From a virus, in the IMG/VR virus record IMGVR_UViG_3300003154_000682, positions 10,354 to 74,353 of that record: 64,000 nt of DNA, one strand, 5' to 3'. Below, in pieces: positions 2 through 57,472 of the stretch (positions are counted from its first letter, which is position 1; every line of letters starts with the position of its first letter). The notes under the pieces are model-generated. The model saw only the letters and a program-made list of their open reading frames with translations, searched no databases and was not told the origin of the DNA. A program made the position numbers and the translations under genes.

Positions 2-3000
2 TTTATAGATAAGAATAGAAATGCTCTGGAAAAAAACTCACTGATGGTACCTGGTGTTCCAGAAGGTTTGGAAGGATTAAAACCCATTATTGGTAGTATA
101 CAAGATAAGATTGATTCTGCCATGACAGAACGTGAGAGACTTCAAACAACAGGAGTTCCTAAAACTGAAGGAGAATTTAAGACTTCAGGTGATGTTCAAA
201 AAGATATAGATAACTTAACATCTTTGATTAAAGAGCTAAATGCCGCTATTTCTAATGTGATTCCAAAATATGTAGCTCAAGCACAGAAACTTGATTACGA
301 TGGTGATCAAATAGAAATTCATTCTGCTAGATCTGTTGACGCTCGTAAAGATATAGAATCTCATTTTAAAAGATTCCATGAAGCTGAACCAAATAAAGAT
401 ATTACTACCCAAGACGTTTTTATGAAACGTTTTCTATCTGAAGCAGCCACTACTAAAACCACTGGTGATTATGTCTTTGGTGAAAGCACTGCTGCATTTG
501 AGAAAAAGTTCCCATCTGGAAAGGGCTTTGATTTTATGAAGAGTCCATTTTTAAATGAGAGTATGGATTACTTAGGACCAAAAGAAGCTTTGGGTGTTCT
601 TTCTGGAAAACCTGGTATTGGTGATGTATCCAATGTAATAAAAGATGTTCTATCAGACATGAATAGACCAGAAACAGAGATTGCTGGTATCATGGGCAAA
701 TTTGATAAAATGGATAAGTCCGATCCTAAACAATATATAGAAAATATAATGTCTGAAATAGCCTCATCTAATTCTGATATTTTAAAACAGGTTGAGGCGG
801 GGATTAAAAAAAGACTCCATGAAGAAAAGACTGGTGATACAATTGAAGCCCAATTATTTAAGATTCATACTGGACCAGAAACAGAAGGTATGTATCGTAT
901 GCATCGTCTTGGAGAAACTGAGGCTGGATTTGGTGGAGGATTAATATCCCAACAATCTGAAAGAAATTCTAGCGAATATTTTAAACAAAGAAATCCAGCT
1001 CTAAAAGCTGTAGGAGGTCGTCCAGAAGAAGAATTTCATACTATGATGAATGAAATGGTTCGTTTTGGTATTCAGAAAGGTATGGATGTTAAACACGCTG
1101 GAGAAAAACCTATTGCTGGAGAGATGGTTAACTACTTATCAAAGGGGCCAGAAGGTGCCAGTGCCCTTTGGGATAAAATTCAAAATGAAAAACCATATGC
1201 AGACCTTAAAGACTTTTCAAAGGACAGCGAAAAAGCTATCAGAATGAGAGTAGGTGAATTGCCTACATCAGAGATATTATCTGAAGCTAAGAAAGTTACG
1301 GAAAGTCGTGGCGGAAATGCTGGAGATTTAGATAATTCATCAAGGGAACAATTGATTAAGGTCCTAATCGATAAGGTAGGGTTCAAAGGATTTTTAGAGG
1401 AACTATCTCTTTTAGTCAAAAAAGATGCCGTCGAGGGACTAGTTGCACAGGCAAAGACTTGGTCTCCTGCTAAAAAAGGTAGTCCTGGAGGAGGTCTTCC
1501 ACCCATTAAGGGACAAAATCTTGAGATGTGGGCTGAGAATGCCGTTAATGCCCAAATAGCTAAGGGTAGTATTAGTGTAAGAGGTGATATATCTGAATCC
1601 CAAAATCCTTTATATGGCATGCGTACTTTCTTTTCATCTCCTAAATCTGAATATGATAAGTATAGAGATAAATTTGGTGAAATGCCAGTCCCTAAAGAAA
1701 AAGTAGCAGGCTTATCTGAAGAAGATACTAAAACTTATTCCTATAAATATAAAACGGCTAGAGCTACAGCTTCTAATATTCATCAAGAATTAAATGCAGC
1801 TGCTGCTGGATCATCTACTGGGGCATACTCAGATATGATAAGAGGTAGTATAGATACTCTTTATAAACAGCAAAAAGAAATAGAATCATATAATGATGAA
1901 CTTAAAAATTATAATCCAGAAGCGGCTAAAAATACTGATATGTCAGAAAGAGTTCTTCAAAGGGTAAATGTTAGTCCTTTAGCAAATAGAACTCTTAATA
2001 TGAATAAAGGAATGCGAGGAGAAATTGAAAGATTATCTGATTTAGCTGGTATACCAGGTTTAAGTGATTCAGAACAATTTGATATTTATAGAGAAAATGC
2101 TGATAAATTCGGTGAAAAGAAAAGAGAAGAGCTTGCATCCTCTGACTATGCTGGAAAAAGAAGAAAATCTCTGGAGTCTGAGACACCTAAAAAAAGTCCA
2201 GAAAAGATAGAAGAACAAATTAAAAGCGAAATGGATGCGGAAGTTGAAAATTATATTAAGCCTATGATAGAAAAGGCTCAAGCTTTAAAACAACTTGATC
2301 GCATTACAGATGTCTTTATTTCCAAGAAAAATGAAGGGCGTGTTCTTACAGATATGTTTCCTAGAGAAGATCAAGGTGCCCCTGATGTACCGCTCACAGA
2401 AGCTCGTAGAAAAGCTATTCAAGAGAGAATGTCCAAAGTTTCTTCAGAACGGCAAAAAACTCTTTTTGAATCAGAAAAGATGAGTAGCTCTGATATTCCA
2501 ACTGGTCCTGGTAGTGTAGGCACTTCTGGAATGGGGGTAGGAGGCGTTGTTCCTGTTCATATAGTAAGTGCAGCTTCTGGTGTAACCATAAATGTTAGAG
2601 GACTGGAAGGTGGAGGATATCTTCCCCCAGGAACAGCTTCCGGAGCTGCTAATGCCCCACTTGCTCAAACAGAAAAGGTAAATGATGATCTTTTAAAGTT
2701 CAAAGATGATATAGTAACATTAAGAGAGACTGTAGCTAAAACCAAACCTGCTTGGGAATCTGGACCAAGACCTAGTAAAGAATATCAATTTTCTCCAAAT
2801 GCTCTTTCTGGTGGAGGAAACGTTTATGGTAACGAACAGAATAAACCTCCATTAACTGAAGAACAACGTTTAGCAGAACAGCATGATAGATTGGTTAAAG
2901 AGCTCACAGAAAAATCAGAACTTAGTACAACTGCTCAATTGCATGCTGATTGGGGTACTCTTATTCATGCTAAATTTGAAAAAACTTTAAGTAAACAACC

Positions 3001-6000
3001 TAATGTTGAAGTTGAAAAACCTGGAAAATATACTCACCCTGAAGCTGGCATTATTTCGGGTGTTGCTGACGTTGTAGAATATAATACTCCTGAAAAGAAA
3101 GAAGGGGATATTTCTAAAGTAGTTGATATTAAAACAACTAATAAAAAAGAAATAGAAGATTTGGATGCTGCTATTAAAGCTGCTGGCTCCACTGATATCG
3201 ATAAAGTAATTGAAAAAGTTAATGATGATTTAAAGCGAAAACTCAATGACTATCTTAGTCAGGTCAACGCTTATTTAAAAATTTTTGGAGAAAGCGCTAA
3301 AGGTGAAATTAGATTTTATGATAAAAAAGATTTTGGAGCAGACATTGAAAAATTTACACCTTTAACAATGAATTTCAATGAGGAAAGATTCGAGAAAGAT
3401 ATGTCTCAGCTTACCAAAGCTAGAGATACCGTAAGAAAAGATCCAAATAAAAATTTCAGAAATACTGCAAATGTGGTGCCTAAACCAGAAGACTATGAAG
3501 GACCACCAGTTGAAGAACTTGATGCAGCTATGCGTATAGCAGAGGAGGCACTTGCTCGTAGAACTACTTTTAATCCTAGAAATACAGCCTCTAGTTATAT
3601 GAAAAGAAAAGAAGATACTGGTACTTCTGAAGAAATTGCAGCTAATACTGCAAAATTTGCTAAAAGTAAATTATATAAGGATTTAACTCCAGAAGATCTT
3701 GAAAGATATCTTGTACCACCACCTATAGCTGAAGGTAATGACGCTAAATCCTTACTTACAAATTTAACTACACTTCATGAACAATCCAAGCTCTATCAAA
3801 AAATGCGTGGAGTGGATATGGATTCTGTTAAAGGTATGCCTAAACAAGTTGGAGAATCCATAGGAAAAGTTTCTGAAGAAGGTCCTCAATACCAGAAGTT
3901 TATAGAACTTACAGATAAGCTTAAAGAAATGGAAACTCCAGATTTTACTGGTAAAGATTATATCAATGCATGGAAAATGTATCGTGCTGCAATTGGTGAT
4001 TATTATATTAAAAGAGCAGAGGCTGCACAAAAACAAATAGAAGAGTCTGATAAAGAGGGAGATTCTACTGGAGCTAATAGAGCATATGGTGATTTTAAAA
4101 AGAATACAATACAATTACAAGAATTTGTGCGTAGAAGTATAGGTAAGAAAACTGATTTATATACTGATGATAAAAGATTTGTATATCCAGGATTAGCACA
4201 AGCTGCTGGAGTTTACATGAGTCCTGCAGAAATTATGCATAAAGTTGGAGAACCTTTAGGAGATGACCAACAACTCATAGATACATTTAAAGGTGTAACC
4301 AAGGGTATTTCTAAAAGTGATAAGAAAGCACCTATCAGTAGTGCTAGAGATATTTTCAGGGAACTAACAGATGTAAATAAAGAATTAGAATCCACCGCAT
4401 CTGCTGCAGATAAATTTGGAAGTTTAGGATCAACGGCTTTCGATAAACTTACTGGACGTGTTACTAGACTAAGGGCTGCTCTACAAGATGTTATGAAACA
4501 GTCTGGTGGTGAGTTAGATGCTGAACAGAAGAAAAATTTAGAAAATATTATAGGTTATTTGAAAACCATTGAAGCCATGTATTCACGCATTCATCCAAAA
4601 GAAGCTGGTGCTCCAGCTGAATATGGACAAACTGGTGTAATACCTGTACCTAAATTTGAAACTCCAGAAGTTCAAGCTGCTTTACACAAAAGAAATATAG
4701 AATCTGTTAAACAATATTTTACTCGTCCAGAAGAAGAAGGTGGTCCTAAAATTGGAGAACGTTTTTCCTATCAAGAAAAAATTACGGGTGATGCTGGTGA
4801 AACAATAAAAAATTCTATCCATCATTTTCAAAAATATGGTGAAGAAATACAAGCTAGTGGTGAGAAAGTAGGAAAATTTAGTGAAAACAACCAAGACTTA
4901 ATAGAAAAGATGCAATCAGTAAATGCTTCTTTTGAGACTGCTATTGGTCGTGTTATTAGATGGGGTGCAGCATCTAAATTAGTATATGGTGGTATGTCAT
5001 ATCTGGGACATTCTTTAGATGAAATTTCAAAGATAGACACTCAGACTGCTCAACTAAAGATGACTATGAATCCTCAAACAACTGATTTTGAAAAATTAAG
5101 AAAATCTGCCGCCGGACTTGGTAAAGAATATGGAGTACCAGTTACCGATGTAATGAAGTCTATGGTTATTTATGGACAACAAGGTTTGAGTCAAGAAGAA
5201 ACTATTGATAGAACAAGAACTTCTACTTTAGCAACTAATGTTACCACCCTTAGTGGTAAAGATTCTATAGAAGCCTTAACCTCATCTATGAAGATATTTA
5301 GGGAAGAAGGCGAACAATCTATCAGATTTTTAGATGCTTGGAGCGAAGTTGAATCTAAGTTTGCCATTACCGCTGCAGATATGGCTAATGCTATTAGAAC
5401 CTCCGCTATGGCTGCCAAAACAGCTGGTATCACTTTTGATCAACTAAATGGTATCGTTGCTGCTATTGGTTCTACTACAAGACAATCAGGAAAAGAAGTT
5501 GGAACTTCTATGAGATTTATTCTTAGAAGAATGTATTCCGAAGAAGGTCCTAAAGCTTTGGCTAAACTTCCTACACCTATATCTTCCGTTACTGGAAGTG
5601 GTGAATTGAAAGAAGGTTTTACTGTATTAGGGGAATTAGCCGGGCAATGGAAAGATTTAACTTCTGCTCAACAAATGAACGTGGCTCAAGCTCTTGGTGG
5701 TACTAGACAATACAATACATTAATAACATTGATGGATCAATGGGATGAAGCTCTTAGGGCTGTAAAAGATAGTACTAATTCTAAAGGTGCCGCTGAAAGA
5801 CGTAATGCTGAGATAATGGCTACTTATGCCAAACAGATGGAACAAGCCAAAGCCGCTGCTACAGAATTGAAAATGGAAGTAGGTAAATTAGTTCTTCCTG
5901 TATTTTCTGCAGGTGTGAAAGGGCTTAAACTTTTTACTGAAACTTTAACTGCTATTCCAGGACCAATCAAAGCTGCTGCGGCGGGGGCGTTACTATTATT

Positions 6001-9000
6001 TGGAGCTTTTGCTAAGGGAGTTCCTATTATAGATGCTATTGCTGAAACCTTAGATAAAGGACAATCTGCCTTTAGTGGTTTAGGCAGTAGTATGTCAAAA
6101 CAATGGGATATGACTAAATTTGAAGTAGCAGGAAAGGGAACAGGAAAAGATGTAACAGGATTAAAAACCTTAAACAAACAAACTGCTGATGCTCTTAATG
6201 TTGGAAAAGATGAAAAAGACAAATCCTTTGTGAAACAAGGAAGTAGTTTGTCTGATTTTCAGACTTCTATTGGTAAGACTTTATTCATGATTAAAGAGGT
6301 AGGACAAGCTTATAATGGAATGATAGGTAAGGGAGCTATTGGTGCCGGATCAATTGGAGAAGCTATCGGTGAAAAATTTAAAGGTATTGGTAGTTTTCTT
6401 ACTGGTGGAGGAGTAGCCAAATCTTTTAAAGATATTAAAGGGATGGCAATAGAACAAGGTTTTGGTGCTGAAGCAATAAGAGAAGCTTTCAAATCTGGTC
6501 CAAAAGCTGTTCTAGGAAAAGCTGCTGGTGCTATATCATTTGCACCACTAGTCGCTGGGGCTGCTTCTTCTGTTACCGGTGAAGCCATAGACTCTTCTAG
6601 TGAATATGTTGGTTCTGCAGGACATAAATTTATTAAAGATTTTGCTTCCCAAAATACTGGATTTGTAAAATCTGTAGCACCTCTTGCAGTTACCGTAGCT
6701 GCTCTTGCTCCTGGAATTGCGGCTGCTTATGATGAGTTTAAAAAATTGACAGGCTCAGCTCAGGATTTTGCAAAAGCTGTAGAAGGTGCTAGAAGTAAAA
6801 ACGATGAGCAGCATAAAGCTATTACAGATCAAATTAAAGCTTATGATACACTAGACGCTAAAGTTAAAGATATACAAAAAGTCTCTCAGCCAGATGTCAA
6901 AGCTAAAAGACAAGAAGCTGGTACATATGAAGCTCCATTGACTTCTTTACAGAAGATTCAAAAGGATGTTACTGGGCTTTCAAATCAATTGGCTGATAGC
7001 AATTTGAACTTAGTGGTTGGTTATGATAAGTTAGGTAACGCCGTTCTAAAATCTACAGGCAATTTTAAATCTTATTTAACAGAGTTAGAAAAACTAAATA
7101 CAATCAAAGGTTTAGATATAGAAACTGGAGTTTTAGATAAATTCATCAAAGATTTGACAGAAACAGGTGGTTCTGAAAAACTTAAGGTAGTTGTGAAAGA
7201 TTTGGCTGAATCCTTTCCTGTTATAGGAGATTTGGTTTCAAGAAACATTAAAGTAGGACCAGCCAAAGCCTTGGAGATGGCTTCCGATGATGTAAATAAA
7301 AGACTTAATTTAAAACAAAAATATCCGTTATCAACAGCAGCAGATGCTGATACACAAAGATTACAAAAAGTTTTAGGTTCTGCTAGAGATAATTTTCAAT
7401 CCTCTTATTCAGATTTTGATAAAGTATTTAAAGGGATAACTGCACCTTCTAGTTTTAAGGGGTTGAGTCCTGATAAAATACAAGAAACTTTATCCTCCTC
7501 TACTTTTAAAAAAGCTTATGAACTTCAATTAGCTATCGATCCTAAATTTAAACTCGTTAAAGATGTTAAACCTGAAGATATAATGGGAAAAACAATACTT
7601 TCTGCACTCAATCCTAGAGCAGCCGGGGTAATGGACGTTAATTCTAAGTTTACTAAAGCCAATTTGGAAAGCACTGGTGTCAAAGCTAGAAGCGATTCTA
7701 AAGTTTATTCTGGAGATATAGTTACTTTAATGGATAGTGCTGCAGAAAAATACAATATAGCTGGTAATCAGGCTATAATTAAAATGAAAAAAACTTCTGA
7801 TGGTGTTATTAGTTGGGTGGCTGAATACTTTAATACTAAGACCTTAAAGGTAGAACAACGCTCCATGTCTGAAATAGAGCCTTTAGTAGATAGTATATTC
7901 CCAGTTCAAAAAATTCAAGAAGACCTTTCTTATAGGATGGACGCTTTAAATACTTTTGTAGCTGGTGCTTCTGCAGGTTTAGTAGGCATTACAGGTAAAA
8001 AGTTTAAGAAAGATTTTAGTTTAGGGGAACGTTTTTATAGTGATATCCCAACGACAACTTTACTCCAAGGTGATTTTGGTTATACGCCAGGTAAAGGAGC
8101 AGGTAAAGGTTATGGTAAAGTAGCTGGAACAGAATCTTATTCTAAGGATATTCAAGAGTTTTATTTTGAACCTATGGAAAAGTTGAAGGTGATGTTGGAG
8201 GGAACAGCAAGAAATAAATTGGAAGGTATGGATGCAGAAACAGCTCCTATTGATAAAGGTACATATGATGAGATTAACAAATTACTCTCAGTGTTAAAAA
8301 ATAATCAAGCTGTATTGCAATTTAGAGCAGTTTTTGAAGATTTGATGAAAGAATTTGCTGAAGGAGATAGAATTTTACAGCAAAATATTGCTACAACAAG
8401 AAAAAGATTTGAAACTGATAAAGAAACAGCGGGATTAATGCAAGGCACACCTAAAGGTATAGAGGATTACCAGCTTGGAGTACAAAAGGTAAAAGACTTA
8501 ACTCCTAGACAGGCATTACTACGCTCTTCTGAACCAGCTAGAAAAACAGCAGAAGAACTTAAAATTTTAACTCTCACATCCGATAGTCAAAAATCACAGA
8601 TTGATAGCACTAGAAAAGCTTTGGTAAATGAAGAAGTGATTAAACAAGTAGCCAAAGCTTCTGGAGCTACATTAGACAAAAGTCAACTTGGCGACTTTAT
8701 GGAAAAGGTTGCTAAAGAAACGGATGATAAAAGCCCATTCAGAGAACTTACTAAAGTGAGTTCTAAGACTGCAGACAATACTGGAGCCACTGTTGATAGA
8801 TTAGATAGACTTTTAGAAAATCAAGGGGATTCAACAACGATAAAGAAAATGTTAGAAAGTTTTGGTGATAATATAGGAGCTGGGGCGTTAGATAGGCAGC
8901 CAAAGAAAATAGCCAACGCTTTGGAACGTGTGGCTGAAATTAGAAAGAGTGCTGAAAAATCCGGAGATCAAGATAATGTTACCAGGGCTAATGTAGTACT

Positions 9001-12000
9001 TGATCAGCTTTCCCAGAAATTAGTTGGTGATGTTGGTTTTAAAAAGGCTACTGAACTTGTAGACGACAATTTTCAACTATTCAAAAAAGATTTTACCACG
9101 TCTGAGTTCAAACAAAGGGCAGTATCTAATATAGGTTCTGATGAGTTTTTGAAAAAGATGGAGGAATATGGTACAGCTAAAACCATGTTTCCTTCTCCAA
9201 TTCCCAAAAGTAGTTTCGACCGCCCCAAATTTTCTGAGAGCGAAGAACTTAAAAATATTAAAAAGAGTCAAGAAGGTGATGGTAAAGAAACGTGGGTAAC
9301 TGGAAAGACTTTAGCTAGTACACAAGCTGCAATAGCCACAGCTTCTTATATAGAAAAATTAGGAAGAAATAAGATAGTAAAACAACTAGATGAACAAGTA
9401 AATCAATACGACTATAAAATAGCTAAGGCTAGAGAAGAAGGTAAAGGCGAGCCTGAAATTAGAGATTTGTCTAAGAAAAGAGAGGCTGTAAGTACAGAAA
9501 GAGATAAAGCCCAAAAAGATGTAGATTTTTATGGTATCGTATCTTCTTTAAGTGCCGCCGGTACGGCTGCATCTGAATTAGCAATGGCTTTCGGTTTAAC
9601 AGAAAGCCAAGTTAAAGGTTTGAATGTAGCAGCCATAGGTACTTATGGGGCTATGCTAACTGCTTCAAAAATAATTGGCGAGGACATTCCTGATAGTGCT
9701 AAAAAATTCGGAAAAGAATTTACTGGTGTAGCCAAAACAATTGTTGAAGGTGAGGAACCATCAGCTATGGCTTATGGTAGATTGGCTGCTTCAGGAAAAA
9801 ATCTTATGCAGGATACAGCCAAGCAAACAAAAAAAATATTTGGAAAAGATAATGAAGAACTGCAAACAGATTCTAGAAAAGCAGAGGAAGCTTCTTTAAA
9901 GGAGAGTTTTAATCAACAGGTTCCATTAGGTATGGAACTAAAAGATTCTGTTAAAAAATTTAGAGATAAAGGTGAAGCTTACGCTAAATATGATGACATT
10001 ATACAATCACAAAATAAAGAAAAGGGAGAATTATTCGAAAAAACAAAAGGATATAATCCAGAATCTGAAGATTACAAGAATATGTACAAGAGACACGATG
10101 CTGAATTATTCGAGTGGTCCAAAGGTAAATCTAAGGATGAAATTACAAGCATATCCAAAAGTCATCCATATATAGGTCTTGTTGGTAGTGGCAGTGCTTA
10201 TAGTAATACATTACAACAACAATCTGGAACTGAATTAGAGAGTATGGGTGAAAAAGCAAGACGTGGTGCAGAAATTCAAGGCGGTCCAAATAGACTTAGC
10301 CAGATGCTCCTATCTTACGGGGCTGCCGGTCTTACAAATTATGCTAGTAAAAAAGGCGAAGAAAGAACTGCTTTGTCCACTACAGAAAGTAAAATGAAAG
10401 AACAACAAGATGCCATGCAACAAGCAATGTTAGCTTACCCTGAAGCTACCAGTCAAGTAGTTGATGATATTAATAAAAGAAGAAAGGAAGCAATAGAAGT
10501 AGGTAAACCCTCAGATATAGAAACTACTACTAAGTCTATGGTTCAAAATGTGGATTCTGAATATCAACAAGTAGTTTCTCTTATCTTAAGATATGAAAGA
10601 GAAATAGCAGAAGCACATGCCAAAACTATTGCTGATATGGCTAGAGCACAGAATGAGCTAGCTGACAAAGAAATTCGTACTTCATATAAACAAGGTGCTT
10701 ATAACGCTGTAACTGGAGAATCAGAAAGACAATTTGGTAGTGCTGTTAATAGAAGATATTCCCTGAAGAATATAGTTCAGGGTGGAATGGGAAGCTATGG
10801 TGGTGATGTAGAGACTCCAGTATTACAAAGCGAACTTTCGTCTCAACAGCGTATATATTCAGAAGCAGATCCAAGACTTAAGAATGTAATCAATAATTAT
10901 GGTGATGCTGGAAATAGATTAGCAGCTGCTGGAAATAGAATGACTGAAATAAAACGTAGCATGAATGAGGAAGCTACGTTAGCAAACACATCTAAAGATT
11001 CTGATGTGGTAGACGCAGCTAAAAGACGTTATTCTGAATTAGCGGATGAACTACGAAAATTAATGCAAACTACTGACGATACAACTAAAAAGTTTAGAGA
11101 TTTTAGTAATGCATATATGCAACTAGATAGGTTTACAAAATCTGTTATAGAATTTCAAAATGCTTTAAAAGAAGTTGATATAAAATCAGCAGTAGGCAGA
11201 ATGCCGGATGTAATGAGAACTAATGAAATGAAGGACAGATTGTTAGGAGGATCTAGTCCTAGTGCTGTTCAAACAGTAACTCCTGAACAAGAAAGAATGG
11301 GTTTAAGAACTGGAATACCTTTAACACATCTACGTTCTGATAAATACACTATTGAAAAAGCTGAGCTAACAGATAGGTTACGTAATGAAACTGGACAACA
11401 AGCTGTTGATACCCAACAAAAAATAACGGATCTTGAAGAACGTAAAAGAAGAGATGAAGAAACTAGACAACAACAAAAGAATAATGAGGGATTAACTACA
11501 GAATTAGCTCCTTATGAAACACAGATAGCAGCATTAACAAGACTTAAAATGCAACCAGGTAACAAACCTGAGCAAACTAAGGCTTATTCTGATTATGCTG
11601 AAAAAATTGCTAAAGCCAATCTTGAAGCTACGCAGCCTATAACAGTCGGTCAGTATAAAAAAGAATTGGATATAAATAAACCAAAAATGTATAAAGAAGA
11701 TGTTGATACAGCAACAAAATGGTTAGAAGGGCGTAAAGATGATGAGATGGTCTATAGAGGAAATCTTCAACAAAAGAAATATTTAGCTACTACTATGCCA
11801 GAGGAAATAAAAAAACCTATGGAAGAGCAGCTTAAATCAGATGGAGAAAAATTTTCTAGTCCTATAACTGGTAAAATTGATATAACTAATAGCTACTTAA
11901 GAGCCATAGCCCAGAAAGAATTTGGAATAGATATTGCTAAACTATCTAAAGAACTTTATGGTACAAAGAGTCCTGAAGTTAAACAAGATGGAAGTTTTAT

Positions 12001-15000
12001 GTTTGGTACTGGAGGAAAAATAGCAGATTGGATAAGTAACTTCTTTAAACCTTCAGCAGATACTTCAGCTCCTGTTACACTTAATGGAAATGAGCCAGAT
12101 AAAGCAGAGCCACAACCTTCTGGATTTATGGATAAAATTAAAAGTTTTACTGATACTGGATTTGGTGACATATCATTTGGAGATATTAAGAATATGTTCA
12201 AATCCATGGAAGGACCTACACCAGTTAGTTCTGAAGCAACTAAAACCATAGGAATCTTAGCCACGTCTGGAGGAGAGGAGGGTGCATCTAAAGATTTAGG
12301 TGAAAGTTTTGTGAGTCCTATAGTTAGTGGTCTTGAAAAACTTGGTTCCATCTTGGAACAAATATTAGGGAAGGGAGCTATGATCCCCTCTTCTGAAGAA
12401 GCACCTTTAACTAGAGCTTCAGGTGGTCCTATATCTGGTCCAGGCACTGGTACGTCAGATAGTATACCAGCAATGTTATCTGCTGGAGAATTTGTTGTTA
12501 AGACCGCTTCAGTAAATAAAGTAGGTAGATCTATATTGAATCATATAAATGCTTTTGGAGCTATACCTAAATTTGCTGGAGGAGGCGAAGTTGATGAGGA
12601 CGATAAAGATAAGTTTAGATCCTCCCATTATTATACAGCAGAAGGCGAGGAGATAACTAGAGAAGACTATCAAAAAATGGTTAGAGATAGAGAACTATCA
12701 ATGGAACAATCTAAATCTAATCTAACTGAGTCCAAAACTAAAGGTGACCGTGCAAAGTATTTTACATCCTATGGTAATGGACCTATAAATAGTTATGATA
12801 ATAGGGAAGATTTTCAAAAAGCCAAAGATCAGTATAATGAAAATATTAGTAAATCCCAGACATTGGATAAATCAGCATCTGTTGGAACAAGAATAAATAA
12901 TCCATTTTCAAGTCTTGGGCAATATAGATCTAAAGAAGGTATGAATGCTGATAGTTCCAAAATAGCACATTCTGATGACAAAAAAGCTATAAGTAGAAGT
13001 GTTGACACATCTCTACCGGAACGCCAGCCCGCTTTCAAAGACGTAATAGATTCTACTAAGACACCTGAGACTGCTGCTATAGTAAGTGATTTATTAACAT
13101 ATCCAAGAGACACACAACAAGCTCATAGTTCTTATTTGTTATCGTCACATAAACCTACTATAGTTCCAGAAGATAGCGTAGCCAATACTTTTGAAACTAT
13201 TGGAAGAGGTATAAGAACTGGTTATGATTCTATAGGTAATGCAGCTACGGCTGTAGATAGTGCTATTTATCGCGGAACAAAAAATGCTATAGAAGTTGGA
13301 GAAGAAGTAGCTAGGGATCCTGGTAAAGCTCTTAATACAGCTGCGGATTTCTATGGAATTGATAAAGCCATTAAATCAATAGATAGTCTAATTTATCATG
13401 GTACAAAAAAAGCTTTAAAATTTGGATCAGAAGCAGCTGGAACTGTTACTGAGATAGCTAAAGACCCTGGTAAAGCCCTCAATAAAGCAACCGATTTCTA
13501 CGGTATTGATAAAGCCATAAAATCTATAGATAGTTTAATTTATCGTGGTACAAAGAGAGCAATCGGTATGGTAGAAAATCCTATGGATGATGAATTTCTT
13601 AGTTTAAGAAGTAAGATGGAGAAGACTAAAACACTTTGGAAAGATGTCAATAACGTTTATGATAAGGTAATGGGTGTTGTTGCTCACCCTTTGACTTGGG
13701 AAAAACCTTTGATGGAAAATATGTCTGATCCCTTCACCAATGAGCTTAAACGTTTTCCAGATTTCTTTTTTGACAGGGACTTTACCAGAAGTATGGGAAA
13801 GGGACTTGGAAAAGGTATAGGCAATACTGAATTGTTTGACTATATGTCCAATTATAAAAAACAACATAAAACTCCAGATAAATTATTTGGTAAATATTTA
13901 AATAGAGCTACTGACTGGACAGCTTCTGGTCAGATAGCTAATATTGAGGCTTTAGCTCATATAGGTTCTGGAGCTGTAGCGGGAGCCGCTTCTGGAATAG
14001 GTGGATTATCCACGTTAGCATTATCTAAAATGGGTTTCATGTCTGGCGACGCGTTAGACAATGCTAGTAAAACACAAAATATGCTATCTGATAGTGGTAC
14101 ATATACACCAAGATTTGCTCCTAAAAAATCTAAAATGGTTTCAGATATAATTGCTGCCCCTGCCGGAGCTTTAGGAGAAGTTGGAACATTGATGGGTAAC
14201 AGAGTGGCTGAAGTCTCAGGATCTGATACGATGGGGGCTCTTACAGCAACAACTATGCAAGCATTACCAATGCTGCTACCATTCGGTAAAGCTATAGCCA
14301 AAGCACCTTTTAGAATGACAGCTGATTTTGGTATAAAAACTCTAAGTAAAATGTCTGACCAACCTACCGCTCTTACTGCTGCCCAAGTCTCAAAATTTAT
14401 GTATGAGATTAATAGTGAATGGACCCCAAATGGTTTTATGGGTAAGACAGTTAAAAAAGGTGTTGGATCCTCCGCTGATTATATATATGAAAAATATGTA
14501 GCAGACGCTACTGAAAAGAAAGCATTTAATCTTAAAAGAAATAAACTTAAGGCAGCAGGGCTTACTTTTGAATCTATACGACAGTTCAATAAAAACGAAG
14601 CCAAAAAACTACACAAAGACCCAAATGATATAACAGGCTATGCTACTGGAGGTCCTATATTTGGGGCTGGTACTGCCACATCTGATAGTATTCCAGCAAT
14701 GGTTTCCAATGGAGAATTTATTGTTAATGCTGCTTCAACTAGAAAGGTTGGTAAATCAACTTTAGAACATATAAATACTTTTGGTTCCATTCCTAAATTT
14801 GCTGAAGGTGGTGAAGTTGATGAAGAAAAGGGTAAAAAAGGTTTTTCTTTTAGTAGAATATTCCGTGATAGTGCAGAAGGTGTGAATAAGGGTGTAGACT
14901 GGTTAAAAAATGAAAGATTAGATTTAGTTAAAAAGGGTACTACACAATCAGGACTTGATTTTACTGGTAATTTATTAAAACAGGGAGCTTTGGCAGGACT

Positions 15001-18000
15001 AGAGATAGGAACACGCGTGGCTAAATCTCCATTAGATACATTAGCAATGGGTGAAGGGGCTATTTCCTATTTAGGAAATAACAGTATCAAAGATATGACG
15101 TCTGACGTTTCTTCTATAGCCTCATCTGCTGGAGATTTTATTTCTAAACGTGGAATTGGTGGAACTTTAAAAGATATTGGTTCTGGTATAGGATCCTCTT
15201 TTATGGAAGATTTAAAAACTGGAGGCACTGGTATAACCGCTGGTATACTGGATGTGTTATCTCCAGGAAAATTCCTTTCCAAAACTTCTGATGCTAAAGA
15301 TTTTAAAAGTCTTGCAGGACTTAAATCACATTTTGATGACCTTGCTAAAGAAAATGAAGTGATGAAGAATATATCTTTTGAGTTTCCTTCAGCTTTAAAA
15401 AGCAGAGGTGAAGCAAAGAGATTAAAATCCCTTATAGATGATTTTTCAGAATACACTTCTAAAGCTCCAGAAGCACAAGGTCTGAATAGTGTATCTCTTG
15501 GAAAATCTGCTAGCAGACGATTACATGGTGAAGAAGCTGGGTTATATGATCAAGGCAATATATATCTCAATTTAAGAGACACAGAATTACCAAGAACATT
15601 TAAACATGAAATAGGGCATCATTTTGACGCAGAGTCTAGAACTGCTAGTGGTTTTGGTTTACTAAAAAAGTCTAAAGGTGAAGACATAGGTGGTCCTTTA
15701 AAACGTTTTGTAAGCAAAAGAGAATCTATAACCGACACCATAAATGATATTGTGGATTCAGGAGATAGTTCTAGATTTGTGTCTAACTATGCCTTTAAAA
15801 CTTTTGAAGACCAAGGGATCACAAGAGGTGCAGAAGAATTATTTGCTGAAGCATATTCCAAAAAAATATCTGCTGTACATGATCCTATTACTCAATTTCG
15901 TAAAGCTACTATCGAAGATCCAGCATTAAATAAAGCTTTTTCTGATCTTTATAAAGACGAGGATTTCAAACTTTTTAGAAGCAAGTCACAAAGATCTGAG
16001 GCATATAATAAAAGAAATTTAGACAATCGTATAAGAGGTTTTGCTGAAGGCGGATTAATTGGTGATGAAGAAGAAAATAAAAGATTGAAAGCCATCGCCT
16101 TAGAACAAGCAAAATCCTCACGTTATTATTCTGCTCAAGGAGATGAATTAAGTGAAGAGGAATATAAGAAAGGTCAATCACAACAGAAAAGGGCAGAAGG
16201 AGATGCTGAATTAACAAAAGTAACTTTATCCCTTAGTCCTCGTATGAGATTATACGCAGAACAAGAAGAATATCGTAAAAGAAAACTTGAACAATTAGAT
16301 GAGAAAATAGCAGAGGCAGGTGTTCCAGATCTTACTACCACAAATCAAAGTGTCCGTCATAAGAGTTTAAACTCTATGCTTGATGGAATAAAATCAGTTA
16401 GTGGTTCTGCAGGAGGAGTCGATGTTTATAGTCCTAATAGAGCACCTATGTATCATCCAGATGCCGATATTTATACGCCAGATGATAAAGGTGGCTACAC
16501 AACAAGTAAACCTACTTCTAATATAGCTTCGATATCTGATGATAAAAAGGTTCGTTATTTTACAGATTACGGTAAAGGCATACAAGAACAACCTAATGTG
16601 GACGCTTTTCATGCAGCAAAAAATGAATATAGAGGATTGCCTACATCCCAAGTAACATCAGCTCCTTCTGATATAGAAAAATTTAAAGTTGCTGAAAAAA
16701 ATATAGCTACTAATGACGCTATGTATAATCAGGCAGGATCGGTTATAGATTTTAAATCCGCAGCTAATATTGGAGGATCTGGTATACAAACTGCAAATCC
16801 ATCTGATAATTTAGATGAATTTCATAGAGGGCTTGATCGTTATAAACAGCTTGGTAAATGGAGTGGAGAAGAAAAGATTCATAAAGGATTTCCAAGTAAT
16901 GCCCCTCCATCATCTGGTGTTACTGCACTTGATACTCTTGGTGAGGTTAATAGTAGAATATCTATATCCGCTAAAGAAAATGACAATAAAAGACTTGAAT
17001 ATGCTATGGGTAGAAAAGCAAATTTTGATAAACGTATAGAAGATAGGAAGTTTGATACAGCTTTTAGCAGATTGCCTTCTGAAAGAGGAATAAGAAGATA
17101 TACTGACGATCCAACAAAGATTGATTCAAGGGGTGTTTCTGAAGGTAGTGGACCAATTCGCTATCAACCTATAATTAACAACAGACGTGAAGATGAGGAT
17201 AAAGCTCATGCTTATAAAGCTAGTGAACATGTGAATCCAAGCGTAGCATTTGATAATCGTACAGCTGGTGGAGAATTTGCTAGAGAAAATAATAAGAAGA
17301 TAAAATCAAATTTAGACTACCAGATGGGTGCAGCATTATTAAACACACCCGCACCATATGATCAATTAAATAGTTTACCTCTTGGTATCAGCCCAGTAAA
17401 AGAAAGCTATGATAAGGCTCAAAGAGCTTTGAAAGACATAGATAAAACAAGTCTTACCGAAGAGCAGAAGGATATAATAAGACAAAATGCTGAAAGAACC
17501 AAACTTGTTTTGATGGACTATCAAAAACATTATGCACAGGGTGATCTTAATGAACATTTAAAGACTAGCAAAACTAAAAAAGAAGCTGAATTAGCTGTAT
17601 ATGGCGGTACGCCACTTTTAAAAGAGGGTGAGGAACTTAGTCTTCGTACAAAAACTAAAGATAAAGGAATATACACAGGACTATCCACACTTGCTATAAG
17701 ACAAATTAGAGCTATAGAAGATAATGAAAAGACTGGTTTAACTAATTCAGTAGCTGCTAGAGACAAGTATCCTCTAGAATTTTATAATCTATATAATGAT
17801 AAATTGGCTTCTGATAAAAGAAAAGAAGTTCAAGATAAAATCAATAAAGAATTTAGTACTCCTACAAAATTTGCTACAATTGGTACTGTAGGGGTTTCGA
17901 CAGCTTCAGGTATTAGTGGAGGTAGACCTAGTCCAGGGGTAAAGACAAAAGAAAAAGAAGAAGATTGGTTTAAGTATATGGTAGGAACAACAAAAGGAGA

Positions 18001-28226: not shown

Positions 28227-29483
28227 ATGGCTTACGAAAATATACGTTTACGAAAACCAAATGTTGTTATGGTGGATGGTTATTTCTGGATGATAGATGA
28301 GGATACTGATAGCTTAATAGTAAAAACGGATGATGGAACATTAGCTTACTCTTACCCATTAGATAATACTATAACACAAACTGTAAAATCTTTAGAATAT
28401 GATGGAAGAAATCTCTGGACATTGAGAGCCACCAATACAGATGAGGTAACTATAGACAGATGGTATATAAATAATTACGTGTGTGTTCGTAGAGATGCTT
28501 TTGTCTTTGTACCTGGATTATCACATAAATATAATGTGGATTCTTTTACAGTAGAACATTATCATACCACATTCTCTGCTAATGAGGAAGCTGGGCAGTC
28601 TATACTTAGTGTTATAGATGGTTCTAAGGTAGAAAGTGGTTATACTATAGTCTTAGGTCCAAATATTCTCGGACAGATAGAAGAACGCACAGTTAGTTCT
28701 GCGTCTGAAGGTTCCATACAGATAAATGGTTCTACTACATATGCTTATAATGCTGGTGATCCTATTTCCTTTTATAAAAGATTGTGGTTATTTAACAATT
28801 ATGATGGATTAGACAGCACTACTGGAGCCTTATATGCTATAGATGCTTACACTGGTTCTGTTATCACAAAATATTCTGGCGGGGCGTATAAAGATATTAA
28901 AGCATGTACTTTTTTTAATGTACCTAGATATGTGTTCAATAAGAATGTGCCAAAAAGTACTATAGACCCTAGATATAATGCTATTTGTTATATAAAAGGA
29001 ACCAACTTAATCTTTTTGAATCCTGACGATTTAAATAATAGTTATGGCTCGATGACTATGGATAATATAGAAGCAGATCAAGCCACAAATATTGTAGTTT
29101 ATGACTTGGCGATTGAAGGAACAAATGTATACAGATTACAAAGAAAAGCTACATATTATGGTGTTACGGCTCTATATGCAGATACAACATATAACTATCA
29201 ATTATCATCCCTAAATTCATTTATTACAAGTATAAGTCTTCGTGCTGACCCAGCCATTCTACCAGCTAATGGTGTGAATCCTGCCGCAATCACAGCTATT
29301 GTTAAAGACCAATTTAATCTACCAGTACAACAAAAACAAGTATTTTTTACAGATGACGATCCTAATGGTAGCATTTTATCATCACCAGTAAACACAGACG
29401 CAAATGGAGTAGCTCAGACCACTTATATAGCAGGTATTACTGCAAGAGAAGTACGAGTTACGGCTACGGCCCAACAAGGTTAA
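28227..29483 (+). CDS. Tail protein with C-terminal Big_1 (invasin/intimin-type Ig-like) domain (418 aa)
   Basis: SLRADPAILPANGVNPAAITAIVKDQFNLPVQQKQVFF...VNTDANGVAQTTY...VRVTATA; paralog of ORF 29493. Confidence 0.8.
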   Translation: MAYENIRLRKPNVVMVDGYFWMIDEDTDSLIVKTDDGTLAYSYPLDNTITQTVKSLEYDGRNLWTLRATNTDEVTIDRWYINNYVCVRRDAFVFVPGLSHKYNVDSFTVEHYHTTFSANEEAGQSILSVIDGSKVESGYTIVLGPNILGQIEERTVSSASEGSIQINGSTTYAYNAGDPISFYKRLWLFNNYDGLDSTTGALYAIDAYTGSVITKYSGGAYKDIKACTFFNVPRYVFNKNVPKSTIDPRYNAICYIKGTNLIFLNPDDLNNSYGSMTMDNIEADQATNIVVYDLAIEGTNVYRLQRKATYYGVTALYADTTYNYQLSSLNSFITSISLRADPAILPANGVNPAAITAIVKDQFNLPVQQKQVFFTDDDPNGSILSSPVNTDANGVAQTTYIAGITAREVRVTATAQQG

Positions 29484-54493: not shown

Positions 54494-57472
54494 ATGCAGT
54501 ATAATGTTTTGTCAGGAGCTCTGTGGGAGGTAAGCACAATATCTGGTAGTAAAGCTATAGCTTTTAATGACCTCTATTCATTATCGGATTATAGCACTAC
54601 TGCAAGATTAAGTTTGAATTCTTCAGAAAAACTTGCCGTGGATTTTGATTTTGGACATAGAATACATCTTGATCGTTTTGAATATAAATTCATAGCTAGC
54701 AATGCCACACCATCAGCTGTAGCCTCTGGTATAAAGTTTTATTATAAAAATGAAAGTTTTGATTCTTACGAATTATTAAGTACATTCTCTTATGGTGATG
54801 GTGTTTTCTACACATCTATAACAGGCTCTATTTTTGCTCCTAGATATATAAGAATTAACCACACTTTATCGGGCACTTTTGGTGTTCCCACAGCCTCCGG
54901 AATGGTTTATGGATTTAGAGCATTGAATAACGATACTGTGGTAGATTTTGGTGTAGATGGACATCAAACTATGGAATCCGTCGAAACTGCACGAGGAAGT
55001 GCTCCAGTTATAAAAACGATTCCTATTTATAATAGCGGACCAATAAAAACTGATGCTTTTGTAAATTTAGAACCTACTTTTTCTCCTGTGGATGAAGTTA
55101 TGTATATATCAGATAGTAGTAATGGTCCATGGATAAAATCTTTAGACTCATCGAGCCTCATTGCTGATACTACTAATTTTAATTCTGGTTATACTACTGG
55201 TTTACATAACGTTACTGGATTACTTCGTCTTATGGGAGTTGATGATTCAGCTAATAAATATGCTAGTAGACTCTATAGTGACTACTATTTAACCAAGATC
55301 TTCGATAAAAATAATACGTATTGTAGATTTGTTATAGACAATGTAGGAACCGCTGGTAATATAAAAACTGATAAAAGTGACGCTACAGAAACCATAGAGG
55401 TTAGAAGTAGTAATACCAAGCCCACACCTTATATGGTGTTTAGAGAATTAATAAATGTTCCAGTTGCTAGTAGCAATTCTCTATTATGCTATAGAGATCG
55501 TTGGTTAAATACTCAGGCTATAAAAGAAACGAGTTCTTGGTCGTTTTTATCTTGTTCCCAATATAGTGCTTGGAAAGATTATAGAGTTGTTTATGACCAG
55601 ATAACAGAAAGATGGGCTGGTTATGCTGCACATACCTATAATCATTATTATAGTACTGCTGAATTATATTTATTTAATAACTTAGGAACCACTTCTTTGA
55701 CGTATAGATTGTCTTATCAATCTACCGCTGCTATTCCTGTTAATTTTGTTTGGAGAGAGTTAAAACTAGATATTACTGGTGGTATGTGGATTTATTTTTA
55801 TTGCCAGTCTTCTCATTCTGGAGATTTTGTTCATTCAACAGGATATTTTCTTGCTTATTTTGATGTAAATTTGAACAATACTTTTAAGTGGTTTACAATA
55901 ACTGAAGAAATAGATAAGATAGATGTTGATTATAACAATAGAAGTGTTTGGTATACAAGACCCTCCACAGATGCTATTTATAGAGTAGATACCGCTGGGG
56001 ATATTAAAGTCAATTTTGTAAACGAAGATACTAACTATGATCTTGGTGGAATAGCTGTTATGCCAGATGGCAATTTGATATTTGCTAATGGAAAAGATTT
56101 ACATAGATTAAAGTATAATGGTATATATCTTCCAGAATATTTTATAGAGGGGGTTGCTGAAGCTCGTATAGATTATATAGTTTTGGATGATGATGGTAGT
56201 GAAACTATATGGACGATAGAAGATATGACAGTTGGACGCCTTTATATAGCTGGAGAAAAGAAGGGTACCTATGATTTTAGAATAACTGTCGATTATCCAA
56301 TTAGAATGACCCCTACCCTTGGCGGGGTATGGGTTACCTGTTCTACTATGGATGGCTTGGGCGGTGTTGTTATGCGGTTTATATCAAAAGAAAATCGTAG
56401 AATAGATGTGGAATACAGACCTAGTTATGTGTCTTCTCCTGGATTATTATATCAACCATATTATCATTCCAATTACGCACGAAAAATGCCAGTTGCCATC
56501 GATACTGTCTGGTCAACCCTATCTTGGAAAAAGATAGCTATAAATGGTTTTCTTGCTCCAGAGGATCAATATTATCAGTTAAGGATAGTGTTGAGACGTC
56601 AGGAACCTATAGAAAGATATCCAGAATTTGTAACAGATCCTAATCAAGTATTTTTTTCTGATGATTCTTTTGACCAGGTAAGTAGTATACCTAATAGGCT
56701 TCTTTGGGGAAATTGGTTGTCTTACCCCGCCACAAATAGAGTTTATGTGAATACAACAGATAAAAAATTGATATTAACATCAGATAATGGTGGTACCCAA
56801 GATTCTTTTATAGACACGAAGGATAGACTTATAGTTGGTAGGGATAGTAGTGGTTTACTGGATATTAGAGTACGTTATACTTTTGGTGCTGGTGATGGTG
56901 TAGACAGTACTAAAGCTGAGTATCTATATATCTACGCTTATAGTGTAGAACCAGGTTATTCTGGACATAATATAGGAGTGTGTATTTATATACCTCCAGC
57001 ACCAGCTTCCCATCTTTGTTATGTTTATGCTGGTGTTGATGATTCTTGGACAAATTGGCCGAGTAATGGTGGATGGTGTTCACTAAATATGTATGATGGT
57101 GAATTAAGACTATATTGGGATGGTAGCAATGTATATGGACAGTGGAGAGATCCAAATGGTACCTTTGCGGGTGGACAAAAAGCAGCTTTGCCGGGAGCAG
57201 TTGGTAATTATTTTTATGTAAAGATAATTTCTAATAGAAATAGTTCTCAAGTAAAATTAGATGATTTTGATATATACAATGGATATACATATTATTATAC
57301 AGAAAGTCCACAAATAAAATCTATATATAAACAAGAATTACTAGAGATAAAAGATGTATATCCTAATAATTATAAAAATGTCTATGTTAAGACTTATGTT
57401 CCTAAAGATTTAGAGATAGGCTCCAATTACGATATGGATATGAAAGTCAGGTGGAGGATTCCAACTTACTGA
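54494..57472 (+). CDS. Tail appendage protein with probable beta-propeller and lectin-like domains (992 aa)
   Basis: RBS AGGAG. Blade-like repeats (IDVDYNNRSVWYT..IYRVD..G; GIAVMPDGNLIFA). C-terminus similar to that of ORF 45478. Confidence 0.7.
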   Translation: MQYNVLSGALWEVSTISGSKAIAFNDLYSLSDYSTTARLSLNSSEKLAVDFDFGHRIHLDRFEYKFIASNATPSAVASGIKFYYKNESFDSYELLSTFSYGDGVFYTSITGSIFAPRYIRINHTLSGTFGVPTASGMVYGFRALNNDTVVDFGVDGHQTMESVETARGSAPVIKTIPIYNSGPIKTDAFVNLEPTFSPVDEVMYISDSSNGPWIKSLDSSSLIADTTNFNSGYTTGLHNVTGLLRLMGVDDSANKYASRLYSDYYLTKIFDKNNTYCRFVIDNVGTAGNIKTDKSDATETIEVRSSNTKPTPYMVFRELINVPVASSNSLLCYRDRWLNTQAIKETSSWSFLSCSQYSAWKDYRVVYDQITERWAGYAAHTYNHYYSTAELYLFNNLGTTSLTYRLSYQSTAAIPVNFVWRELKLDITGGMWIYFYCQSSHSGDFVHSTGYFLAYFDVNLNNTFKWFTITEEIDKIDVDYNNRSVWYTRPSTDAIYRVDTAGDIKVNFVNEDTNYDLGGIAVMPDGNLIFANGKDLHRLKYNGIYLPEYFIEGVAEARIDYIVLDDDGSETIWTIEDMTVGRLYIAGEKKGTYDFRITVDYPIRMTPTLGGVWVTCSTMDGLGGVVMRFISKENRRIDVEYRPSYVSSPGLLYQPYYHSNYARKMPVAIDTVWSTLSWKKIAINGFLAPEDQYYQLRIVLRRQEPIERYPEFVTDPNQVFFSDDSFDQVSSIPNRLLWGNWLSYPATNRVYVNTTDKKLILTSDNGGTQDSFIDTKDRLIVGRDSSGLLDIRVRYTFGAGDGVDSTKAEYLYIYAYSVEPGYSGHNIGVCIYIPPAPASHLCYVYAGVDDSWTNWPSNGGWCSLNMYDGELRLYWDGSNVYGQWRDPNGTFAGGQKAALPGAVGNYFYVKIISNRNSSQVKLDDFDIYNGYTYYYTESPQIKSIYKQELLEIKDVYPNNYKNVYVKTYVPKDLEIGSNYDMDMKVRWRIPTY

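Follow-up and report, generated by a model that had tools for sequence, protein, structure and literature searches.

A RecB/Cas4-like PD-(D/E)XK nuclease domain predicted within the polymerase-bearing tape-measure protein of an uncultured jumbo phage

We analyzed a 64,000-nucleotide (nt) stretch of phage DNA, positions 10,354 to 74,353 of the IMG/VR virus record IMGVR_UViG_3300003154_000682 (hereafter the window), focusing on a putative nuclease domain inside the giant tail protein encoded at its 5' end. The first 19.7 kb of the window consist of one open frame, which belongs to a giant open reading frame (ORF) extending from position 4130, a TTG start, to position 30049 of the 105,546-bp contig and encoding 8,639 amino acids (aa). 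A preliminary description of the window had set the beginning of this ORF at Met44, the methionine encoded at nt 44; this start was incorrect, since the frame continues past the 5' end of the window to the TTG. Residue numbers given below nevertheless follow P0002, the giant-ORF protein numbered from that methionine, and in the full 8,639-aa protein the nuclease motif region corresponds to residues 3060-3166. The same description had placed a RecB/Cas4-like nuclease between a polymerase and a tape-measure core, and this order was confirmed, with a predicted beta-prime/Rpb1-like fold upstream of the nuclease and the PF10145 domain downstream of it (Table 1).

The nuclease domain and its place in the giant ORF

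The ordered motif set GTLIH, E, SGVAD, VVDIKT and QVNAY is read from the in-frame translation of nt 2942-3330, the region to which the nuclease had been assigned, and the residue numbers previously given for D1009, D1028 and K1030 are exact. The location therefore stands, but the span was too small, as it contains only the core of a larger folded domain. The helical insert reported before QxxxY is present as the 43 aa between K1030 and Q1073, which form three helices in the model, and the Gly/Pro-rich linker described at nt 2480-2830 was found by direct reading. The iron-sulfur (Fe-S) cysteines of Cas4 are indeed missing; neither the domain nor the whole ORF contains a single cysteine.

A 31-row alignment of nuclease homologues (A2) was the basis of the profile search and of the AF2 model of the domain, which reached a pLDDT of 92.5 and a pTM of 0.88. 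VIA-align of this model gave Z scores of 11.4 to the Cas4 structure 4ic1, 10.7 to 9kqh and 10.2 to a Cas4-Cas1 fusion. In an unbiased, Foldseek-independent scan of 48,161 PDB chains, the best 19 all belonged to the Cas4/RecB/lambda-exonuclease lineage, and beyond rank 19 the remaining listed matches were almost all other PD-(D/E)XK folds. Foldseek matches in the PDB were RecE, Cas4, the DinG N-terminal nuclease, Exo5, MGME1, AddA and RecB. The viral library BFVD returned 75 matches at E<=1e-3, led by phage exonucleases (E 1e-7, TM up to 0.57), models from Swiss-Prot pointed to the same nuclease fold, and the neighbours of the domain in protein-language-model space were viral YqaJ, PDDEXK_1 and Cas4 clusters. 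PHROG 1706, annotated as 'CRISPR/Cas system associated', matched the nuclease with an E-value of 5e-5. When the A2 profile was compared with the PDB, the only significant match was Cas4 SSO0001 (4ic1; E 2.9e-5), in an alignment that takes in motif I, the Glu, GxxD and the (D/E)xK strand; phmmer with the single nuclease sequence against the same database returned only noise. AF2, Foldseek and VIA-align thus predict a restriction-endonuclease-like fold of the RecB/Cas4 type with high confidence, and the PHROG, profile and structural scores place the RecB/Cas4-like PD-(D/E)XK identity far beyond chance.

An exhaustive HMMER search of 1.84 billion representatives recovered 27 relatives of the nuclease; 20 of these are longer than 3,000 residues (most of them 7,000-8,000), and the other seven are much shorter. 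With the domain as tblastn query, 50,697 phage records gave no match. Neither the HMMER search nor a profile search aimed at free-standing proteins of 120-390 aa, which gave one fragment only, turned up a stand-alone sequence relative. The search for related loci gave none with the single nuclease domain and four IMG/VR fragments with a 5-row alignment. Conservation was examined across 60 domains, of which giant proteins contributed 53 and shorter ones seven, the homologous domains being 24-46% identical to the copy in the window. The only residues invariant across this set are G971, E991, G1006, D1009, D1028, K1030, Q1073 and Y1077, so that D1009, D1028 and K1030, previously described as intact catalytic residues, are kept in 60/60 domains; H975 is kept in 59. 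Of the two results that the preliminary description had named as refuting it, a missing restriction-endonuclease-like fold and unconserved D/D/K residues, neither was obtained. As these eight motif residues are the sole invariant positions, selection appears to act on catalysis and not on the scaffold. Based on sequence and model, the domain is apparently an active, metal-dependent nuclease with a catalytic site predicted to be intact. An inactive relic was rejected because the catalytic residues are the only invariant ones. We also rejected a true Cas4, given that the domain has no cysteines for an Fe-S cluster and shows no association with cas1/cas2 or a CRISPR array, being part of a tail gene whose neighbours are structural. 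As a description of the domain, a new subfamily of the RecB/Cas4/lambda-exonuclease lineage that lacks the Fe-S cluster fits best.

The Gly/Pro-rich linker ahead of the nuclease carries a conserved (Y/F)xxSxLxGG(G) motif, here FSPNALSGGG at about nt 2792-2821 and YRASGLKGG in many relatives, approximately 15-25 aa ahead of the first nuclease helix. The strict (Y/F)xxSxLxGG pattern occurs just upstream of the domain in 33 of the 53 members of the family, with variants recognizable by eye in most others. The motif resembles the xxGG motifs that the preliminary description had seen in the C-terminal third of the protein; that it serves as a processing site is speculation.

The region upstream of the nuclease is predicted to be a beta-prime/Rpb1-like RNA polymerase, of which the window holds the C-terminal half. 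The sequence K-L-D-x-D-G-D...H, which contains the catalytic loop, is invariant among homologues of this region (sets of 24 and 31). The AF2 model of 901 aa had a pLDDT of 79.8, and the 50 best VIA-align rows were all largest subunits of RNA polymerases, from bacteria, archaea, plastids and eukaryotes, with Z scores of 13.0-13.6; one of these alignments spans 222 residues at 3.6 Å. Foldseek alone gave no significant match for this model, although its list consisted mostly of beta-prime subunits. Downstream, tape-measure families of PHROG match the giant ORF with E-values down to 9.7e-73, and the tape-measure core is about 28% identical to cores of Bacillus phages, with no cultured relative. 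Two hydrophobic, membrane-segment-like stretches were detected after the core by a Kyte-Doolittle scan (19-residue window, score >=1.6). The HEIGH sequence further along the chain has the form of a zinc-peptidase motif, and the Pfam scan of the giant ORF covered it with no peptidase family. The first 2,089 aa of the giant protein and the four genes upstream of its ORF had no match in Pfam or PHROGs.

Table 1. Features of the giant ORF and the second nuclease gene of the contig. Positions are those of the window unless marked as contig positions; residues follow P0002.
Feature	Position (nt)	Residues	Strand	Basis or remark
Giant ORF, share within the window	2..19696		+	ORF limits; extends 5' beyond the window
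Predicted beta-prime-like two-barrel RNA polymerase, C-terminal half	2..1336		+	Invariant loop, AF2 model, VIA-align
DYDGD catalytic loop of the polymerase region	293-307		+	Within K-L-D-x-D-G-D...H
Gly/Pro-rich linker ahead of the nuclease	2480..2857		+	Direct reading; holds the (Y/F)xxSxLxGG-type motif
Nuclease cassette, missing in frame from nine relatives	2606..3583	~855-1180	+	BLAST colinearity, MAFFT alignment with P0037
Folded PD-(D/E)XK nuclease domain (predicted)	2858..3439	~939-1132	+	AF2, VIA-align, BFVD
Catalytic motif set	2954..3274	G971xxxH975, E991, G1006xxD1009, D1028-I-K1030, Q1073xxxY1077	+	Conservation among 60 domains
GTLIH	2954-2968	G971-H975	+	Translation
Motif Glu	3014	E991	+	Translation
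SGVAD	3068 (D1009)	G1006-V-A-D1009	+	Translation
VVDIKT	3125-3133	D1028-I-K1030	+	Translation
QVNAY	3260-3274	Q1073-V-N-A-Y1077	+	Translation
Tape-measure core (PF10145 PhageMin_Tail)	5099..5701	1686-1886	+	Pfam E 1.1e-25
Two hydrophobic, membrane-segment-like stretches, downstream of the core	5972-6046 and 6662-6733		+	Kyte-Doolittle
HEIGH (HExxH) zinc-peptidase-type motif	15605..15619	5188	+	Regex match, motif level
Stand-alone PD-(D/E)XK nuclease, 387 aa	contig 91556-92719 (L004:17556-18719), outside the window		+	PF12705 E 1e-25

Retention and loss of the nuclease, and its genome context

A search with the polymerase region yielded 55 giant proteins of 4,530-7,998 aa, and a local hidden Markov model detected the nuclease in 53 of 62 giant family proteins, about 800-900 residues past the DxDGD loop. 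The nine giants without it are P0037, P0051, P0054, P0055, P0056, P0058, P0060, P0061 and P0062. In BLAST comparisons with these nine relatives, colinearity breaks over exactly the nuclease stretch. The sequences on either side of a block of ~320-330 aa follow each other almost directly in P0037 and P0054, and the alignment with P0037 sets the limits of the deletion. The absences require at least five changes on the polymerase tree, forced by well-supported branches, and the nuclease is present in both deep clades of this tree; the polymerase is retained in every family member. The nuclease tree recovers the same clades (SH-aLRT 97-99), and because it mirrors the tree of the carrier polymerase, ancestral presence with vertical inheritance and repeated loss is indicated, and several independent gains of the cassette were rejected. 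The question of gain or loss raised by the preliminary description is thus answered in favour of loss, in frame, from 9 of 62 proteins. Based on these sequence comparisons, the nuclease forms a discrete cassette, about 325 aa in length, which is ancestral in a family of about 60 giants and has undergone at least five in-frame deletions. Pfam searches of the giant proteins that lack the nuclease revealed no replacement nuclease.

One deep clade of the family (P0063, P0065-P0072) has an additional DEDD exonuclease (PF00929 RNase_T) at N-terminal aa ~150-370, which does not occur in the protein of the window; with this additional module, nuclease cargo recurs in the family. In one relative (L002:20990-21900, JGI 3300071326 contig), the giant gene is in three pieces of 3,698, 224 and 4,309 aa, in frames 2/0/2 that overlap briefly. 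The first break lies about 400 aa past the nuclease and just ahead of the tape-measure core. This arrangement looks like paired frameshifts, possibly due to sequencing errors, or else the polymerase-nuclease part is truly split from the ruler in this relative.

CheckV estimated the IMG/VR record to be 37% complete, which implies a jumbo phage genome of about 285 kb, in line with the contigs of relatives, which reach ~318 kb among the matches listed. The uncultured phage is known from metagenomes only; near-identical reads came from groundwater, with smaller shares from freshwater, pond and wastewater metagenomes, and host inference via the phage RecA led to unclassified metagenome-assembled genomes only. 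A simple ORF call without overlaps kept 68 ORFs of 70 aa or more on the contig, all of them on the + strand, and Pfam recognized two of the ten tail-side genes that were scanned.

Outside the window, the contig encodes a stand-alone PD-(D/E)XK nuclease that bears four Cas4-type cysteines (C18 and the CPWCDFKDYC cluster) and belongs to a replication block that also encodes RecA, DnaB, DnaG, DnaJ and a sliding clamp. BLASTP detected no similarity between this protein and the tape-measure nuclease, and an hhalign comparison of it with the family profile aligned no more than motif I, at a probability of 8%. With a canonical stand-alone nuclease beside RecA, DnaB and DnaG, replication and recombination have their own enzyme. 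Contig positions 94943-104651 (L005) hold about seven glycosyltransferases, a UDP-GlcNAc 2-epimerase and a methyltransferase, and the glycosyltransferase gene at contig 94943-97126 is split by an intein with a LAGLIDADG domain. On the tail side, Big_1 Ig-like, F5/8 type C (discoidin) and DUF2341 domains are found in proteins at window positions 28227-29483 and 57451-60027, and CBM96 in a protein at contig 74035-75873; these proteins are likely host-surface binding parts.

Proposed role of the nuclease and alternatives

The giant ORF contains no cysteine in 8,639 aa, whereas cysteine makes up 1.42% of the remaining 25,809 residues encoded on the contig (P ~3e-54). Giant homologues of 5,000-8,000 aa contain 0-2 cysteines each, and the nuclease domain is cysteine-free here and in all 31 aligned homologues, so that cysteine avoidance looks like a family-wide property. 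Since cysteine is missing throughout, we infer that the chain travels unfolded through the tail and refolds in the cell. Unfolded travel followed by refolding without cofactor insertion would also explain the loss of the Fe-S module from the nuclease.

The closest characterized architecture is that of gp96 from Thermus phage P23-45, a tape-measure protein of 5,002 aa that bears a virion RNA polymerase at its N-terminus; gp96 is in the virion and its polymerase transcribes the pre-early genes (PMC10770324). As gp96 is the only experimental basis, virion presence and action at entry of the N-terminal enzymes are transferred to the present protein by analogy. Within the tail the polyprotein would be kept in extended form, and it would be ejected and refolded on infection. 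Its membrane segments may form a channel, and the N-terminal polymerase and the nuclease would then remain on the cytoplasmic side, at the point of DNA exit. Along with its genome, the phage thus probably injects a nuclease that is ready for use. Since the closest structural neighbours are mostly DNA-end-processing exonucleases, many of them 5'-to-3', action on DNA ends or on single-stranded DNA would be expected, probably in the 5' to 3' direction. The preliminary description had listed host DNA attack, genome-end processing and anti-defence as possible roles of a virion-delivered nuclease, without preferring one of them. In our reading, the nuclease would most likely degrade host or competitor DNA, or disarm a defence based on DNA, ahead of any phage gene expression. 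We give about even chances to the reading that the nuclease is an accessory entry weapon against host or competitor DNA or DNA-based defence, not obligatory for genome entry or transcription. The accessory role is proposed because five lineages dispense with the domain, recombination has a nuclease of its own, and nuclease cargo varies across the family.

Several points weigh against this reading. Pfam PF12705 (PDDEXK_1), PF01930 (Cas_Cas4) and all other nuclease families gave no match to the domain even at E<=10, which makes it a divergent subfamily outside the current Pfam models, and its predicted family placement rests on fold, motifs, one PHROG match and one profile-PDB match. At the pore, a tethered nuclease would encounter the phage's own DNA before any other, and within the contig, which covers 37% of the genome, nothing shows how that DNA is spared, the glycosyltransferase cluster being only suggestive. 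Loss of the domain in some lineages could, in addition, be offset by genes outside view.

To the strongest alternative we assign a clearly smaller but still appreciable chance: the nuclease may resect the leading genome end of the phage itself, 5' to 3', at the channel exit. Such resection would expose single-stranded DNA for recombination or circularization, blunt attack by RecBCD/AddAB, or provide a template for the clamp-less polymerase. The position of the domain directly after the polymerase and ahead of the membrane segments agrees with this proposal, as do the end-resecting nearest structural relatives (Cas4, lambda exonuclease, RecE, MGME1, Exo5 and Dna2). However, nine relatives, through at least five independent losses, keep the polymerase and the tape measure without the cassette, and recombination is served by the separate Cas4-type nuclease beside RecA. 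A further reading, which we consider improbable, would couple the polymerase and the nuclease as a 'resect-and-transcribe' entry machine where the tape-measure channel opens into the cytoplasm. As the leading end emerges, the nuclease would strip it of one strand, yielding a single-stranded template or promoter for the clamp-less polymerase, and the stripping would help pull the DNA into the cell; storage of both enzymes unfolded in a tail longer than 1 micrometre would explain the total absence of cysteine.

Equally improbable, in our estimate, is that the nuclease works late in the producing cell, for example on host DNA as a source of nucleotides, and is then clipped off or inert in the virion, so that it would never be delivered. 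The HExxH motif in the chain could process the protein, the conserved (Y/F)xxSxLxGG motif stands just ahead of the domain, and the three-piece gene of one relative breaks about 400 aa after the nuclease. The last of these resembles paired frameshifts, possibly sequencing errors; furthermore, the polymerase part of the P23-45 protein was detected in virions by western blot (PMC10770324), and a cysteine-free ORF that includes the nuclease fits a translocated protein.

Slightly less probable again is an RNA-directed nuclease, acting in shut-off of host mRNA or in trimming the transcripts of the neighbouring polymerase, for which the herpesvirus protein SOX and the PD-(D/E)XK endonucleases fused to bunyavirus and influenza polymerases are precedents. 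The nuclease is physically fused to an RNA polymerase, and SOX (Z 6.3) and the cap-snatching endonucleases of hantavirus and Ebinur Lake virus (Z 4.6-5.8) appear among the weaker structural matches, but the best matches (Z 8-11.4) are all DNA exonucleases, QxxxY is typical of RecB-type DNA nucleases, bacteria have no caps to snatch, and the polymerase persists without the nuclease in nine relatives. Least probable is an inactive structural spacer or DNA-end-binding module whose fold holds the genome end or adds length to the ruler: in an archaeal virus, proteins derived from Cas4 have taken on structural functions by exaptation (PMC4625639), yet catalytic residues decay in such exaptations, whereas here they are the sole invariant positions in 60 sequences, and five clean deletions without change elsewhere in the ruler would not be expected of a spacer.

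Comparison with known systems

The best structural match of the domain is Cas4 (SSO0001 of Saccharolobus solfataricus, 4ic1, and Pcal_0546 of Pyrobaculum, 4r5q), with Z scores of 10.7-11.4 over ~145 aligned residues at 19-20% identity and the same ordered motifs, including QxxxY. Every Cas4 family member has a four-cysteine Fe-S module (PMC5704561). The phage domain, in contrast, has neither cysteines nor an Fe-S cluster, is without CRISPR or cas1/cas2 context, contains the 43-aa helical insert before QxxxY, and is embedded in an 8,639-aa tail protein, whereas Cas4 is a free protein of about 200 aa. Stand-alone phage exonucleases (YqaJ/lambda exonuclease, RecE and the PF12705-type 'Cas4-like' proteins) share the fold and the catalytic architecture; these are separate replication or recombination genes whose products are made after infection, whereas the domain described here is part of a tape measure.

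A nuclease of the same superfamily that is covalently linked to a virion-carried polymerase is also found in bunyavirus L and influenza PA. Theirs are RNA endonucleases for cap snatching that belong to RNA-dependent polymerases, and they are structurally distant (Z ~5), so that the likeness is an analogy only and not family-level homology. Polyvalent proteins (Iyer et al. 2017, PMC5512222) likewise carry many enzyme domains on one chain delivered with the DNA; a zincin-type peptidase has been proposed to separate their domains, and their proposed role is in early conflict with the host. That survey names only ParB-type DNases (PMC5512222), and a RecB/Cas4-type nuclease and a tape-measure carrier lie outside its description.

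In the literature, we found no paper describing a PD-(D/E)XK nuclease inside a tape-measure-fused polymerase protein. The nuclease superfamily and the tape-measure-fused polymerase are both already known; the nuclease inside such a protein is new, with an active site conserved in about 60 uncultured jumbo phages and yet a domain that has been lost several times. Relatives with and without the domain offer a natural contrast for the effect of an injected nuclease in the first seconds of infection. Cargo enzymes that have no cysteines or cofactor clusters suggest what is required of an enzyme that survives passage through the tail, and a compact, Fe-S-free nuclease that is presumably refoldable may be useful as a tool.

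The system most similar in overall architecture is P23-45 gp96, as in both cases a DxDGD two-barrel polymerase, a tape measure, membrane segments and a metallopeptidase motif lie on one giant chain. No nuclease is mentioned for gp96 (PMC10770324), and a search of the P23-45 genome with the A2 profile gave no match, although the control on the contig of the present phage returned a single copy at E 7.9e-78. Thermus phages are also absent from the named organisms that match the tape-measure core, a comparison made by the core only. The protein of the present phage is 1.7 times longer than gp96, and its DxDGD loop is at residue 2173 compared with residue 779. Tape measures were long viewed as passive rulers; P23-45 added a polymerase to this picture, and the present family adds a second, separable enzyme. 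The phage protein thus extends the architecture of P23-45 gp96 by a nuclease.

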